The notes under the pieces: generated by a model
Database searches by the model: none
The model's input: only the letters and a program-made list of their open reading frames with translations
What the model was told of the DNA's origin: nothing
Made by a program: the position numbers and the translations under genes
NCBI GenBank assembly: GCA_947426945.1
Contig: CANEFX010000001.1
Location: 13,238 to 77,237, forward strand
Direction of reading: 5' to 3'
Length of the DNA stretch: 64,000 nucleotides
DNA from: an uncultured Bacillota bacterium
GTDB lineage: Bacteria; Bacillota; Clostridia; Oscillospirales; Oscillospiraceae
In this document: positions 26,941-37,677 of the stretch, piece by piece
Layout: every line of letters starts with the position of its first letter
How positions within the stretch are numbered: the first letter of the stretch is position 1

Positions 26941-27147
26941 TCTCCTTTTCAGCAGAACCGCAACAAAAAAGCCGACAACTCCGCGATAAATCGCAGAAGT
27001 CATCAGCTCTTGCAAGCGGTTTCGGTTTCCCGAGGGAGCACTTCATTCCCTTGAAACCATATTATAGCCGGAGCCTCGGAAAAGTCAAGTCCTTTTTGAA
27101 GTTCACACTTCTGAAAGCATACATTGAAACCGAAAGGAATGATACCC

Positions 27148-32933: not shown

Positions 32934-33606
32934 TGCCCCACACCACCTTTAAATAGTCTGGCTCACGAGGGTTGAGCTCAATCTTCTCCCGGATGCGCCG
33001 GATGTGGACCATCACCGTATTTTCGGAGGACCAGGCCTCCTCCCCCCACACCCGGCGGTAGATCTCCTCCGCAGGGAACACCCGGCCCAGATTGCGCATG
33101 AGCAGGTCCACAATGCCTGTCTCGATGTTGGTGAGCTTTACCGGCTCGCCGTCGGCGGTGAGCTCCCGCCTGGCCGGGTCATAGGCCAGGCGGCCGTTGA
33201 CGATTACCCCGTCCGGGACGGCGTTCACGTCCCCCAGCCGGGTGTACCGCCGCAACTGGCTACGCACCCGGGCCACCAGTTCCTGTATGCCGAAGGGCTT
33301 GGTCACATAGTCGTCCGCCCCCATGCTGAGACCCAGCACCTTGTCGCTCTCCTCGCTCTTGGCCGACAGAACGATGATGGGCAGATTCCGCCGCTCCCGG
33401 ATGCGCAGCACGGCGGACAGCCCGTCCAGACGGGGCATCATCACGTCCATAAGGATCAGCCTCAGATCTGGATCCAGTGCCAGATCTACGGCCTCCATGC
33501 CGTCATGGGCCTGAAGAACCCGCCAGCCCTCCTTCTCCAGCGCCGCGGCGACGGCCCCCGCGATCTCCCGGTCGTCGTCCACCACCAGAATGGTCTCTGT
33601 GCTCAT
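32908..33606 (-). CDS. OmpR/PhoB family response regulator
   Basis: Receiver domain (ILVVDDD...MDVMMP) plus winged-helix output domain (...VWGIGYKM). Confidence 0.92.
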   Translation of the reverse strand: MSTETILVVDDDREIAGAVAAALEKEGWRVLQAHDGMEAVDLALDPDLRLILMDVMMPRLDGLSAVLRIRERRNLPIIVLSAKSEESDKVLGLSMGADDYVTKPFGIQELVARVRSQLRRYTRLGDVNAVPDGVIVNGRLAYDPARRELTADGEPVKLTNIETGIVDLLMRNLGRVFPAEEIYRRVWGEEAWSSENTVMVHIRRIREKIELNPREPDYLKVVWGIGYKMEKK

Positions 33607-33651
33607 CAGGTTCGCTCCCTCCTCGATTGCTGGTGTCAGAATAACAGAACT

Positions 33652-33693
33652 TTCTTACAAAGCCAGTAGGATTTCTCTTACAGATTTCTTACA
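33652..33693 (-). promoter_or_regulatory. Three direct repeats T(T/C)CTTACA (TGTAAG(A/G)A on the - strand), candidate response-regulator binding sites
   Basis: Copies at 33652-33659, 33675-33682 and 33686-33693. The last two are 11 bp apart, and the first is 23 bp from the second. They lie 46-87 nt upstream of the RR start codon. Confidence 0.45.
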
Positions 33694-33839
33694 TTTTACG
33701 CCCCAGAGAGAAGAAGCGCAAGCGTGTTTCGGTCCGCCGCCCGTCTATAGAAAGGATGCTTTTGCAAGTTTGAACAAAGAATTATGCAAAACGTAAAAAT
33801 CGAGACTCAACTTTTGTTAAATAAAACGAACAAAAAACC

Positions 33840-33868
33840 TTGACAGGATTGCGTTAGTGTGGTAAATT
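33840..33868 (+). promoter_or_regulatory. Near-consensus extended -10 promoter
   Basis: TTGACA - 17 nt (ending TGG) - TAAATT. Confidence 0.7.
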
Positions 33869-33874
33869 ATAAAC

Positions 33875-34319
33875 AGAACAAGGAAGGGTGAGTCCAATGT
33901 ACAGGTAAACACCCCAGCAGTTGAAACCAGACGTCCGGTCATATTTTGTGGTAAAACGGTATCGGCCTTGAGAGGGAGCTAAGGAGAAATAAGCAGGCTT
34001 CAGGATTCTGACAGAACAGCAGATCTCCGAAGATAACGACCGGGAAGGGCGGAAGGTTTCAGCCGGCGCAGAGCGGCAGACCCAAGCGGCAAGCAGGAAG
34101 GGAATCCGACCAAAGGGCCTCACATATGAGGAGTTAGGCCGTAATAACGGTAACAAAAAGGATGGTCGTAGAAGAACCGGAGGATTGTCGAGGGGTGTGT
34201 GGCTGAGCGTATCCAATAGAAACGGAGGTAGCCATATGATGTTAGATAATAAGACAGAACAGGAATGACCCTTGACTGTAACGGATTACGAAACGGACAG
34301 TCAAGGGTCATTTCTTTTT
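33875..34319 (+). ncRNA. Candidate ~445-nt non-coding RNA of unrecognised class
   Basis: Strong promoter, stop codons in all three + frames, only low-quality ORFs on the - strand, purine-rich. Ends in a perfect 15-bp terminator followed by a second terminator. Confidence 0.55.
34265..34319 (+). terminator. Rho-independent terminator 1 of the ncRNA unit
   Basis: ATGACCCTTGACTGT / ACAGTCAAGGGTCAT perfect 15-bp stem, 17-nt loop, then TTTCTTTTT. Confidence 0.9.
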
Positions 34320-34326
34320 GTGTGTG

Positions 34327-34352
34327 AACGGCGGCAGGCCGTTTTTTCTTTT
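34327..34352 (+). terminator. Rho-independent terminator 2 (tandem)
   Basis: AACGGC-GGCAG-GCCGTT followed by TTTTCTTTT. Confidence 0.65.
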
Positions 34353-34360
34353 GTCTAATA

Positions 34361-34387
34361 TTAGCACTCGAATATATAGAGTGCTAA
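34361..34387. promoter_or_regulatory. CIRCE element (HrcA operator) upstream of hsp20
   Basis: TTAGCACTC-N9-GAGTGCTAA, a perfect match to the CIRCE consensus. Confidence 0.9.
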
Positions 34388-34495
34388 TATTTACAGTTTA
34401 GACATATTGTTTGCAAGAATTGTTCATAAGTGGGTACTATACTAAAGTCAAATTTAAGGAGGACCCCCAAAGAGGTCCGAAAGGAGTTTTGACTT

Positions 34496-34918
34496 ATGTA
34501 TATGATCCCCTATTCCAACCGCAGTTCCTCCAGCCTGATGGACCTGTTCGATGAGTTTGAGCGCAGCGTCTTTGGAGAAAACGGCCGGCGCACCCCGGCC
34601 TTCTCCACCGATATCAGGGACGAGGGCGACCACTACCTGCTGGAGGCCGAGCTGCCCGGCTTTCAGAAGGAGGATATTGACCTGGATGTGAAGGACGGCT
34701 TCCTCACCATCTCCGCCACCCACCAGGAGTCCAGCGAAACCAGGCAGAACAATTACCTGTGCAAGGAGCGCCGCAGCGGCAGCTTCAGCCGTTCCTTCAA
34801 CCTGGACGGCATTCAGGAGGAGGGAATTACCGCCTCCTACAGCAACGGCGTGCTGGAGCTGGTCCTGCCCAAGCGGCAGGAGGTTCTGCCTCAGAGCCGG
34901 AAGATTGCCATTCAGTAA
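34496..34918 (+). CDS. Hsp20/alpha-crystallin family small heat-shock protein
   Basis: 140 aa. Alpha-crystallin domain (DIRDEGDHYLLEAELPGFQKEDIDLDV..., GVLELVLPK). AAAGGAG RBS. Confidence 0.92.
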   Translation: MYMIPYSNRSSSSLMDLFDEFERSVFGENGRRTPAFSTDIRDEGDHYLLEAELPGFQKEDIDLDVKDGFLTISATHQESSETRQNNYLCKERRSGSFSRSFNLDGIQEEGITASYSNGVLELVLPKRQEVLPQSRKIAIQ

Positions 34919-34969: not shown

Positions 34970-34996
34970 TTAGCACTTATAATATTTGAGTGCTAA
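34970..34996. promoter_or_regulatory. CIRCE element (HrcA operator) upstream of clpB
   Basis: TTAGCACTT-N9-GAGTGCTAA (one mismatch). The spacer contains TATAAT. Confidence 0.85.
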
Positions 34997-35082
34997 AAAT
35001 TCATAATTTATTCATCCTTTTTTTCCGGCTTCGCTTATACTGAAAGCATACCGTAGGCTTATTCCTGAAAGGAGTGTTATCT

Positions 35083-37677
35083 ATGAACATGAACCAGTTT
35101 ACTCAGAAGTCCCTGGCTGCTATCCAGGGGGCTCAGGACATCGCCCTGGAACACGGAAACCAGCAGATTGAGCAGCCCCATCTGCTGCTGGCTCTGGTGG
35201 GGGACGGGGAGGGATTTATCCCCCAGTTGCTTACCGCCATGGGAATGACCGTCCCCAGCTTTGAGGCGGCGGTGAGAGCCGAGGTGGACAAGCTGCCCAA
35301 GGTGTCCGGCTCCGGCAGAGAAAGTGGGAGGGTGTATGTCTCCCAGGATGTGGACCGGGCTCTCCAGGCCGCCGAGCAGGAGGCCCAGGCCATGCGGGAC
35401 GAGTATATCTCCGTGGAGCACATTCTGCTGGGCCTGCTGGCCCACCCCAGCGCCGCCCTGAGAGAGCTGTTCCGCACCTACCGCCTGGAAAAGGAGAAGG
35501 TGATGCAGGCCCTGGCCCAGGTGCGGGGGAGCCAGCGGGTGACCTCCGACAACCCGGAGGAGACCTACGACGCCCTGAAAAAGTATGGCTCCGACCTGGT
35601 AGAGCGGGCCCGGCAGAATAAGCTGGATCCGGTGATCGGCCGGGACGACGAGATTCGGAACGCCATCCGAATTCTGAGCCGCAAGACCAAGAACAACCCT
35701 GTCCTGATCGGCGAGCCCGGCGTGGGCAAGACGGCTATTGCCGAGGGGCTGGCCCAGCGGATCGTCAAAGGGGATGTGCCCGCCTCTTTAAAGGATAAGA
35801 CCATCTTTTCCCTGGATATGGGAGCCCTCATCGCAGGGGCCAAGTACCGGGGCGAGTTCGAGGAGCGGCTGAAGGCCGTTCTCAACGAGGTGAAGAAGTC
35901 AGAGGGGAAAATCATCCTCTTCATCGACGAGCTGCACACCATCGTGGGGGCGGGCAAAACTGAGGGCTCCATGGATGCGGGCAACCTGCTCAAGCCTCTG
36001 CTGGCCCGGGGGGAGCTGCACTGCATCGGGGCTACCACCCTCAACGAGTACCGGCAGTATATCGAAAAGGACGCCGCCCTGGAGCGGCGCTTCCAGCCCG
36101 TCATGGTCAACGAGCCCAATGTGGAGGATGCAATTGCCATTCTCCGGGGGCTCAAGGAGCGCTACGAGGTGTATCACGGGGTAAAAATTACTGATGGAGC
36201 CATCATTGCCGCCGCTACCCTGTCCAACCGGTATATCTCCGACCGCTTTTTGCCTGATAAGGCAATCGACCTGGTGGACGAGGCCTGTGCCATGATCCGC
36301 ACCGAGATGGACTCCATGCCTACCGAACTGGATGTGATCCAGCGGAAGATTATCCAGCACGAGATCGAGGAGGCCGCTCTGAAAAAGGAGACGGACAAGC
36401 TGTCTCAGGAGCATCTGGCGGAGATACAGAAGGAACTGTCCGACATGCGGGACGACTTCAACGCCAAGAAGGCCCAGTGGGATAATGAGAAGGGGGCCAT
36501 CGGCAAGGTCCAGAAGCTGCGCTCCGATTTGGAGGCCGCCAGCGCTGCCCTGGAGAAGGCCCAGCGGGAGTATGACCTGGAGAAGGCCGCCGAGCTGCAG
36601 TACGGCCGCATCCCGGAGCTGAAAAAGGCCCTGGAGGCGGAGGAACAGGCCGCCAGCGAGGGCAGGCAGCGCTCCCTCCTCCGGGACAAGGTGACCGAGG
36701 AGGAGATTGCCCGGATTATCGAGCGGTGGACCGGCATTCCCGTGGCCCGGCTCATGGAGGGGGAGCGGGAGAAGCTGCTCCACCTGGAGGACATCCTCCA
36801 CCGCCGTGTGGTGGGCCAGGACGAGGCCGTCCGGCTGGTGAGCGAGGCCATTTTGAGAAGCCGGGCCGGCATCGCCGACCCGGACAAGCCCATCGGCTCC
36901 TTCCTGTTCCTGGGGCCCACCGGCGTGGGCAAAACCGAGCTGGCCAAGACCCTGGCCGAGGCCCTGTTCGACAGTGAGAAGAATCTGGTGCGCATCGACA
37001 TGTCCGAGTATATGGAGAAGTTCTCCGTCTCCCGGCTCATCGGGGCCCCTCCGGGCTATGTGGGCTATGAGGAGGGGGGACAGCTCACCGAGGCGGTGCG
37101 GCGCAAGCCCTACTCCGTGGTCCTCTTCGACGAGGTGGAAAAGGCCCACCCGGACGTGTTCAACGTCCTGCTCCAGGTGCTGGACGACGGCCGGATCACC
37201 GACAGCCAGGGCCGGACGGTGGACTTTAAAAACACCATCCTGATTCTGACCTCCAATCTGGGCAGCCAGGCCCTGCTGGATGGCATCACCGAGGACGGAG
37301 AGGTCAGCGAGGTTGCCCGGGAACAGGTGGGCGAGCTGCTGAAGCGCTCCTTCCGGCCGGAGTTCCTCAACCGGCTGGACGAGATCGTATTTTACAAGCC
37401 GCTGACCAAGGAGAATATCACCCGCATCATCGACCTGCTGGTGGAGGGCCTGAACCGGCGGCTGGCGGACAAGCAGCTGACGGTGGAGCTCACCCCCGCG
37501 GCCAAGCGCGCGGTCATCGAGGCGGCCTACGACCCCGTGTACGGGGCCCGGCCCCTGCGCCGCTACCTTCAGCATACCGTGGAGACCCTCATCGGCCGAA
37601 AGATTGTCGCCGACCAGGTGGAGCCCGGCTCCGCCCTCACGGTGGACGCGGAGGACGGAGAGCTGACGGTCCGGTAA
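35083..37677 (+). CDS. clpB: ATP-dependent chaperone ClpB
   Basis: 864 aa. Clp N-domain, two AAA+ modules ([20 protein letters not shown]) and the long middle coiled-coil typical of ClpB. ATG after AAAGGAG. Confidence 0.96.

Follow-up and report, generated by a model that had tools for sequence, protein, structure and literature searches.

A conserved RNA gene of gut Clostridia with a predicted ribosome-binding site and a tiny reading frame at each end

Introduction

What is made from a stretch of about 445 nt that has a near-consensus promoter at one end, two terminators at the other and no recognisable gene in between? Such a unit lies between a divergent OmpR-family response-regulator gene and hsp20 in a 64,000-nucleotide (64-kb) stretch of contig CANEFX010000001.1 from an uncultured Oscillospiraceae bacterium, which we refer to as the window and whose positions are used throughout. 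The original prediction, drawn from the letters of the sequence, called the unit a large structured non-coding RNA of unrecognised class. Part of this stands: the unit is a conserved RNA gene of gut Clostridia that is outside Rfam 15, independent of its neighbours and with a supported fold in the lineage of the window. The fold, however, does not define the family, as members of about 217 nt do without it, and we found two conserved tiny open reading frames (ORFs) that had gone unmentioned, at 33897–33908 and 34236–34268, each with a Shine-Dalgarno (SD) sequence. Since these mini-ORFs are universal and the second has its stop codon in a terminator stem, the label "non-coding" is doubtful, and an invariant core of two ribosome-binding sites with tiny ORFs suggests that the RNA probably works by engaging ribosomes. 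Our tentative interpretation, to which we give somewhat less than an even chance, is that of a free-standing, ribosome-engaged regulatory RNA resembling an orphan attenuator.

A transcription unit outside the known RNA families

The extent of the transcript unit is set by the following features.

33840–33868, + strand: sigma-A-type promoter from the promoter scan, with −35 TTGACA, a 17-nt spacer and an extended −10 (TGg-TAAATT)
34261–34320, + strand: terminator T1 from the terminator analysis, a 19-bp stem (34261–34279 with 34297–34315) with a 17-nt loop and a U-tract
34326–34352, + strand: terminator T2 from the terminator scan, a backstop made of a hairpin (34326–34344) and a T-run

The promoter matches the consensus at 10 of 12 positions and is the top promoter-like site of a 1.8-kb scan, in line with the near-consensus extended −10 promoter that had been predicted, and both the −35 and the extended −10 are conserved throughout the homologs. 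Judging from the promoter position, transcription should start at about 33875 and run for about 445 nt into the tandem terminators. The tandem pair was correctly foreseen, though the T1 stem is 19 bp long and not 15 bp. Past ~33875 the longest ORF on the + strand has 27 aa, and opposite the unit the − strand has only ORFs of odd composition, as had been claimed. A protein-coding gene or pseudogene remnant was not found, with no ORF of meaningful length in the unit and no gene call in the same gap of related contigs, and conservation outside the two mini-ORFs is modular rather than codon-periodic. A protein-coding substitution pattern, which the original prediction had named as speaking against it, is seen for about 45 of the 445 nt, as stop swaps and synonymous changes, and not for the rest.

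The transcript is 63% purine, and its segment has a GC content of 0.40–0.55 compared to 0.62–0.68 for the genes on either side, which bears out the purine-rich, lower-GC composition noted before. Folded as a single strand, the + strand beats its shuffles with z = −4.9, compared to −2.4 for the − strand. The RNA gene has one copy in the 64-kb window. An Rfam 15 scan of the window at gathering scores gave no family for the unit, including RNase P, tmRNA, SRP, 6S, T-box, riboswitches, OLE, ROOL, GOLLD and raiA, so the expectation that no known RNA class would fit was upheld. Relaxing the threshold to E ≤ 10 on 33600–34500 gave nine matches, all far under the gathering score and implausible (small nucleolar and long non-coding RNAs), and 13 distant homolog loci gave only tRNAs at the gathering threshold. 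Literature searches with the motif sequences and for described Oscillospiraceae RNAs gave nothing relevant.

Homologs and modular conservation

Homologs were collected in two ways. For the genome set, an 18-mer from the invariant 3′ part, a pattern that fixes the second SD sequence (SD2) and the AUG AUG after it, was run against a one-genome-per-species collection and gave 34 places, 28 of which are true homologs with 72–87% identity over the RNA unit. They belong to Lawsonibacter spp., Flintibacter muris, Pseudoflavonifractor sp. 60, Colidextribacter sp. OB.20 and other Oscillospiraceae, all of them Eubacteriales. For the metagenome set, a degenerate 20-mer from the 5′ part, which fixes most of the first mini-ORF (ORF1), gave 49 contigs, one being a chance match within a gene; many of the remaining homologs (about 48) lack the 18-mer and are far more divergent. 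The unit is conserved from promoter to terminator in 28 GTDB species and in about 48 contigs from metagenomes, as the original prediction would have it. Contigs with an Hsp20 87–93% identical to that of the window keep the order regulator gene, gap, hsp20, with the gap itself 83–86% identical. BLASTN against phage and plasmid collections and a viral-contig scan with the 5′ motif gave no match, suggesting this is not an obvious mobile-element RNA.

Members are about 217–484 nt long, with 91 to 420 nt between the 5′ motif and the second mini-ORF (ORF2). In the short members L070 and L102 (L numbers are our locus labels) merely one or two small hairpins lie between the ends. A comparison of the window with three relatives gave the following modules and identities.

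33875–33919, + strand: 5′ module, from conservation, with SD1 (AAGGAAGGGUGAG, 33880–33892) and ORF1, AUG UAC AGG UAA (33897–33908, Met-Tyr-Arg-stop); 98–100% identity
33920–34063, + strand: Domain I, from covariation, a variable-length insertion closed by the long-range helix Pa (33920–33928 with 34055–34063); 67–72% identity
34064–34210, + strand: Domain II, from covariation, closed by Pb (34066–34069 with 34207–34210); 88–91% identity
34211–34320, + strand: 3′ module; 99–100% identity
Third codon positions of the regulator gene: 73–77% identity
Third codon positions of hsp20: 79–82% identity

One locus, L102, an echidna gut metagenome contig, carries two tandem copies of the RNA gene (~300–1000 in RNA orientation), each with its own promoter. 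Its second copy is strongly diverged (ORF1 AUG UAU AGG UAA; ORF2 MEPMTEQR) yet retains the full architecture, and an EF-G paralog gene follows ~1.6 kb downstream.

A three-codon reading frame at the 5′ end

All members share one ORF1 layout: an SD-like run, 5 nt, then AUG UAY ARR and a stop. In distant members the SD1 run reads (C)CAGAAAGGRUGAG. The genome set was selected via the other end of the RNA and is thus unbiased for ORF1, and in it AUG-UAC is retained in 28/28 genomes, with AGG, AAG, AGA or AAA (Arg or Lys) as the third codon. The stop is UAA, UGA (L038) or UAG (L044, L048), and in L041 it comes one codon early. The second copy in L102 still encodes Met-Tyr-Arg, with UAU in place of UAC and a different spacer. 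Pairing of SD1 with the anti-SD, for which an assumed Firmicute sequence was used and not one from the host genome, has −11.7 kcal/mol in the window and a range of −10.8 to −11.7 kcal/mol. SD1 lies 5–17 nt from the predicted start of transcription in the window and 0–3 nt from it in distant members.

A second reading frame that ends inside a terminator

The 3′ module holds two further features ahead of and overlapping T1.

34211–34235, + strand: linker and SD2, UAGAAACGGAGGUAGCC, from conservation, with its GGAGG core at 34224–34228, 7 nt ahead of the AUG
34236–34268, + strand: ORF2, from conservation, AUG AUG UUA GAU AAU AAG ACA GAA CAG GAA UGA (MMLDNKTEQE-stop)

SD2 is invariant in Lawsonibacter-type members and reads (U)AGAAAGAGAGGUAACC in distant ones, and the consensus of the module is UAGAAA(C/GA)G(G/A)GGUA(G/A)CC, a 3–8 nt spacer and an 8–10-codon ORF. 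With the same assumed anti-SD, SD2 pairs at −13.8 kcal/mol, a value among the strongest ~10% for 50 proxy genes of the window (median −10.75 kcal/mol). The predicted openness of the ORF1 and ORF2 initiation regions is 0.59 and 0.55, compared to 0.46 for the body.

All complete members retain an ORF2 of 8–10 codons. The common type is M(M)-L-D-[I/N/T]-K-[N/T/S/H]-[E/H/S]-[Q/E/D]-[K/N/E/R/G], in which Leu, Asp and Lys are invariant and synonymous variants occur (UUA/CUA, AUC/AUU, AAC/AAU, CAC/CAU, AAG/AAA and AGU/AGC). Other members have peptides of unrelated sequence (MVEPKHYEE, MRDPNIHKA, MIEPNNFR and MEPMTEQR) and keep the start, the frame and the 8–10-codon length. The codons are A/U-rich (UUA, GAU, AAU, ACA, GAA, AAA) despite flanking genes of 62–68% GC, and UUA and GAU are retained in almost all lineages.

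In the window ORF2 enters the 5′ arm of T1 with its final two sense codons and its stop codon. The same holds more widely: among 30 distinct members the T1 stem starts 6–12 nt (mostly 8 nt) ahead of the end of the ORF2 stop codon, and in all 30 the stop codon is base-paired, as are the one or two sense codons that precede it. The 3′ arm of T1 co-varies with the stop-codon region, as in AAAUGACCC/GGGUCAUUU, AAGUGA/UCACUU, AACUGA/UCAGUU and AAUUGA/UCAAUU, with further compensated pairs in AAGUAA/UUACUU, GGGUAG/CUACCU, GCCUGA/UCAGGC and AGAUAACGC/GCGUUAUUU. Given the known ribosome footprint, the greater part of the T1 5′ arm would be covered by a ribosome whose A site holds the ORF2 stop. A second terminator stands within 110 nt of T1 in 33/40 members, compared to a rate of roughly 0.06 expected from shuffles, and a backstop such as T2 would be useful if T1 were leaky or conditional.

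The T1 loop (34280–34296, AACGGAUUACGAAACGG) hardly changes among the 29 species of Lawsonibacter type; terminator loops are not usually so constant. Its length in distant members ranges from 4 to 44 nt.

Fold of the RNA body

Covariation was tested on an RNAalifold consensus of 29 species from which one doubtful helix set was excluded. Standard pairs fill 98.2% of the cells, compared to 95.8% in shuffles, and both sides have changed at 17/58 pairs, compared to 5.1 ± 1.4 in shuffles (0/500 reach 17) and 6–9 pairs in slid controls. The covariation that the original prediction proposed to look for is therefore present, and the fold in the lineage of the window consists of two closed domains, one with a three-way junction. 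The series of G-U, A-U and G-C pairs in the helices is consistent with a + strand transcript.

Helix Pa, which closes Domain I, has compensatory changes at 5/8 pairs, for example UUGAAACC/GGUUUCAG to CUGAGAUU/AAUCUCAG, while the interior of the domain has indels and an identity at about the neutral rate. In Domain II covariation is found for Pb, Pc, Pd, Pe and Pg, and the following helices are of use below.

34105–34111 with 34164–34172, + strand: Pe, the three-way junction helix, from covariation
34118–34131, + strand: Pf, hairpin CCUCA-CAUA-UGAGG, conserved
34138–34151, + strand: Pg, hairpin, from covariation

Pf is the hairpin that the original prediction had pointed out, and it was found where expected. 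By eye, Pe, Pf and Pg also have compensated changes in the distant members L067, L074, L075, L077 and L090. The large fold is nonetheless a lineage-specific expansion that is missing from short members, not the core that defines the family. Without the two domains, ORF1 and SD2 would be ~26 nt apart, so that the body, with its domains closed by helices, looks like an insertion that keeps the two ends near each other.

Two further contacts were considered and rejected. RNAalifold proposed a 5′–3′ closure in which the region of ORF1 pairs with that around the start of ORF2; it has zero compensatory pairs and is broken by existing variants, and the distant UUA-to-CUA change likewise disrupts it. 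Kissing of the T1 loop with the Pg loop was, by eye, inconsistent across variants.

Proposed working

Should the two mini-ORFs be engaged by ribosomes, a ribosome on ORF1 would sit at the extreme 5′ end and could shield the RNA from 5′-end-dependent decay; ORF1 might also report an arrest of initiation or early elongation, as the 3-codon upstream ORF (uORF) of vmlR does. At the other end, a ribosome reaching the ORF2 stop codon would melt T1, and both T1 termination in the nascent RNA and the protective 3′ hairpin in the finished RNA would depend on ORF2 translation, with T2 catching any read-through past T1. The amount or isoform of the RNA would then track translation status, and the lineage-specific body could deliver the output in trans. 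The bolder version, in which the RNA is a new class of free-standing ribosome-sensing RNA, an attenuator without a gene to attenuate, is doubtful to us; here the occupancy of the two end mini-ORFs would set the choice of 3′ end between T1 and T2 as well as the lifetime of the RNA.

Several points weigh against ribosome engagement as the explanation. Translation of ORF1 and ORF2 is itself predicted from their sequences. The variable positions of ORF1 are all purines (ARR, then URR without UGG), and a constraint to keep a purine run could mimic its coding pattern. Each search pattern also fixed part of what it was used to collect, most of ORF1 for the metagenome set and SD2 with AUG AUG for the genome set. 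Synonymous changes in ORF2 are far fewer than a purely coding constraint would yield and GAU and UUA are near-invariant, so an RNA-level constraint dominates, on top of whatever coding constraint there is. The co-transcriptional part of the model is weakened because transcription often runs ahead of translation in Firmicutes. Finally, neither a conserved antiterminator nor an anti-antiterminator was found in tests of an SD1 hairpin, of the 5′ module against the T1 arm and of the 5′–3′ closure. The best local helix that could sequester SD1 averages 4.16 bp, compared to 4.35 bp in shuffles, and pairing of the 5′ module with the 3′ arm of T1, as an antiterminator would require, is weak, with a mean z of −1.1. 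Direct occlusion of T1 by a ribosome on ORF2 would require no antiterminator.

Comparison with known systems

The closest parallel for ORF1 is the B. subtilis vmlR leader, which has a 3-codon sensory uORF (MIN, with variants MDN, MDK and MRK) upstream of a terminator. The start codon of this uORF was confirmed via 30S toeprinting, and the authors concluded that lincomycin-induced stalling at the uORF relieves the downstream terminator (PMC9226507). Leaders of this type and our RNA share a Firmicute host, an SD with a 3-codon ORF near the 5′ end, an intrinsic terminator downstream and a loosely constrained tripeptide. They differ in that our RNA has a second conserved ORF, a second terminator and lineage-specific domains in 217–484 nt, and in that no conserved antiterminator/anti-antiterminator alternative was found in it. 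As in attenuators generally, short ORFs with their own SD stand upstream of an intrinsic terminator (ORF1 and ORF2 relative to T1), but no cis-controlled protein gene follows immediately downstream. The Listeria lmo0919 leader is a further attenuator with a 3-codon uORF.

ORF2 is best compared with short sensory leader ORFs such as ermCL, ermBL and those of the catA86 and cmlA leaders. It too has few codons (8–10) and a strong SD, lies directly upstream of a structure that a ribosome would remodel and would have its peptide remain within the exit tunnel. Its sequence matches none of the known arrest motifs with which it was compared. A leader ORF of similar size is the 8-codon multi-antibiotic sensor toiL (PMC12121999). 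What sets ORF2 apart from all of these is its presumed target, which is the terminator of its own transcript and not the ribosome-binding site of a resistance gene.

The placement of the ORF2 stop is shared with E. coli pyrBI and rph-pyrE, where a leader ORF runs into or up to a terminator and attenuation is sensitive to coupling. In both, the stop codon is placed such that a ribosome at work on the ORF would cover the terminator's 5′ arm, the classical geometry of translation-dependent read-through. The E. coli systems, however, act on biosynthetic genes that lie downstream and respond to UTP by way of RNA polymerase pausing, while read-through here would reach only T2, in a Firmicutes host where coupling is often weak. 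At the 5′ end, Bacillus mRNAs are known to be stabilised by a STAB-SD, as in cryIIIA, or by a ribosome stalled on the leader, as in ermC. Our RNA similarly has an SD-like sequence able to pair with the 16S 3′ tail a few nt from its predicted 5′ end, where a bound ribosome would block 5′-end-dependent decay. Those elements stabilise long protein-coding mRNAs, whereas here the protected RNA would be the product.

Dual-function small RNAs (sRNAs) such as SR1/SR1P, RNAIII/hld and SgrS/SgrT are also stand-alone or released RNAs that combine a small ORF with a structured body, and our RNA has the promoter, terminator and conserved small ORF expected of one. Its ORFs are much shorter (3 and 8–10 codons), are two in number and lie at opposite ends. 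A precedent for action in trans is rnTrpL/peTrpL, where both the attenuator RNA and the leader peptide are active in this way (PMC7298713). Lastly, OLE, ROOL, GOLLD and raiA are large ornate bacterial RNAs of unknown function (PMC12286853, PMC10861870). With these our RNA shares, in this lineage, an orphan promoter-to-terminator unit of several hundred nt and multi-helix junctions supported by covariation, but it has no covariance-model match, a fold that short members dispense with and a core of two ribosome-binding sites. The component parts are familiar (sensory mini-ORFs, intrinsic terminators, sRNAs with small ORFs). We know of no description of the stand-alone combination of a 5′ 3-codon ORF, a second ORF that ends inside its own terminator and a backstop.

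Alternative explanations

It is possible that the product is a peptide. Under this explanation, which we think rather unlikely, the unit is a mini-mRNA whose ORF2 micropeptide (M(M)LD[I/N/T]K..., 8–10 aa), and perhaps the ORF1 tripeptide, is functional, with RNA structure only tuning its synthesis or stability. The conserved starts, stops and SD sequences would be expected of it, as would the invariant Leu, Asp and Lys with synonymous codon changes, and even very divergent members keep the ORF architecture with a recurring acidic residue at position 3 and Pro/Ile at 4. Yet peptides of 3–10 residues never emerge from the exit tunnel as folded entities, those of ORF2 are hydrophilic, and the divergent ones (MRDPNIHKA, MIEPNNFR, MEPMTEQR) have little sequence in common. 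The nucleotide invariance also goes beyond what peptide selection would give, since it includes the spacers and the rare codons UUA and GAU between genes of 62–68% GC, and peptide production does not need a stop codon fixed in the T1 stem.

The reverse explanation, a purely non-coding sRNA, is in our view quite unlikely. Here the "ORFs" would be by-products of single-stranded purine-rich motifs that act by base-pairing or sequestration without translation, and the partner could be pyrimidine-rich, such as the 3′ tail of 16S rRNA (a 30S decoy) or C/U-rich mRNA regions. The purine content of 63% fits this, and so does an excess of SD-like sites: at an anti-SD duplex of −8 kcal/mol or stronger, 33875–34268 has 10, compared to 5.7 ± 1.7 in shuffles (3/200 of which reach 10). 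The purine-to-purine variation of ORF1, the extreme nucleotide conservation of the end modules and the covariation-supported fold of the body are equally in its favour. What it does not account for is that stop codons swap identity (UAA, UGA, UAG) while a sense codon is never found at the end of either ORF, and that the distance from AUG to SD is always proper. Similarly, the frame and length of ORF2 are kept in members of unrelated sequence and in the L102 tandem copy, and the changes UUA to CUA and UAC to UAU preserve the amino acid.

A third possibility is that the RNA belongs to a neighbouring gene, either as a cis leader or attenuator of hsp20 and clpB or as an element in the 3′ untranslated region (UTR) of the gene upstream. 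In its favour, clpB with or without hsp20 lies downstream on the same strand in the window and in 10/28 genome loci, and most members, distant ones among them, have a DUF2461 gene upstream in the same orientation. This is now largely refuted and very improbable. In the window, hsp20 (34496–34918) and clpB (35074–37677) each have their own promoter and a perfect CIRCE (controlling inverted repeat of chaperone expression) at 34361–34387 and 34970–34996, with the sequence TTAGCACTC-N9-GAGTGCTAA, and from these perfect elements both genes look HrcA-controlled. Relatives retain CIRCE-TGTTCATG-N17-TATACT ahead of clpB even without hsp20, and T1, T2, CIRCE and a promoter stand between the RNA and clpB/hsp20 in each species inspected. 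Many members have some other gene downstream, unrelated or convergent (serpin, KsgA, ThrRS, SpoVAC, an EF-G paralog, convergent genes), and this variability indicates that the RNA is not a leader of hsp20 or clpB, in agreement with the original prediction that it is not simply the hsp20 leader. Synteny of Hsp20 finds only close relatives; at loci 78–86% identical other genes lie ~200 nt upstream and the RNA is absent, so it is not tied to hsp20. A role as a 3′ UTR element is opposed by the near-consensus promoter of the RNA itself and by the lack of a DUF2461 gene in the window. With this promoter retained everywhere, the RNA is an autonomous unit.

A CsrB/RsmZ-like sponge that titrates CsrA through multiple GGA motifs is hardly credible, as the 16 GGA triplets in 446 nt, though some are conserved in purine-rich single strands, are not an enrichment (13.6 ± 2.9 expected, P = 0.25), only 4/16 persist in 28 or more of the 29 species, the number falls to 2–4 in short members, and the body has long-range helices rather than repeated GGA-loop hairpins.

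Genomic neighbourhood

The most persistent neighbour, upstream and on the same strand, is a VanW-like gene (about 610–700 aa) followed by a DUF2461 gene (about 226 aa). The pair is found at L030, L032–L035, L043–L045, L047, L049, L051–L054, L057–L059 and L061 and at the distant L074, L075, L083 and L096. Searches on DUF2461 gave neither a solved structure nor functional literature. In the clade of the window a response regulator and a kinase take the place of this pair. A link between the RNA and this divergent two-component system was rejected, as the regulator and kinase are upstream solely in the window clade (the window, L036, L056).

Upstream of the promoter is one more conserved element.

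33781–33834, + strand: conserved block of ~55 bp, from alignments, with ATTATGCAAAACGTAAAAA (33781–33799) and the inverted repeat TTTGTT-N10-AACAAA (33813–33834)

The inverted repeat ends 5 nt upstream of the −35 hexamer, and the block is near-invariant in Lawsonibacter-type homologs irrespective of the upstream gene. By eye, TTTGT-N8-10-ACAAA-like repeats are also present in the distant members L074, L075 and L090. It is possibly an operator or an UP-like element. A Rex-like operator was rejected for the inverted repeat, whose spacing does not fit the Rex consensus.

Three other elements were noted in the window. Direct CTTACA repeats, three in number (starting at 33654, 33677 and 33688 and so 23 and 11 bp apart; 33654–33693) and conserved in relatives, are found a short way upstream of the divergent gene for the OmpR-family response regulator (start 33606). 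They are at least 150 nt from the RNA promoter and adjoin the regulator gene instead, and an autoregulatory binding site of that response regulator is plausible. In the 5′ UTR of hsp20 a conserved hairpin, GGACCCCCAAAGAGGUCC (34461–34478), lies between the SD-like sequences AAGGAGGA and AAAGGAG and could be a translational thermosensor; a weak CRISPR-DR17 match at the same place is spurious. The sole Rfam match in the 64-kb window is a fluoride riboswitch (crcB motif, RF01734) on the − strand at 26987–27059, with 44.1 bits compared to a gathering score of 34.

Implications

Although the Oscillospiraceae and relatives are abundant anaerobes of the gut, they have received little study and hardly any regulatory RNAs have been described from them. 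The RNA appears to be strongly expressed, judging from its near-consensus promoter and tandem terminators. Cultured carriers include Flintibacter muris DSM 110149 and the mouse-gut isolates Oscillospiraceae bacterium 50-16, 44-34, 44-5 and 50-58. For the search for RNA genes, our results indicate that candidates for a "large structured ncRNA" (non-coding RNA) can conceal functional ORFs far under the limit of gene callers, and that a lineage can gain domains of its own in the form of closed helices placed between functional ends that stay conserved. If ribosome occupancy indeed sets the fate of the RNA, translation status, as set for example by antibiotics, by the supply of tRNA or release factors or by transcription-translation coupling, would become the level of a trans-acting RNA. 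The logic of leader-peptide attenuation would then reach beyond the control of a single gene in cis to a diffusible signal of translation status, and would bear on how gut commensals sense ribosome-targeting antibiotics or stress.

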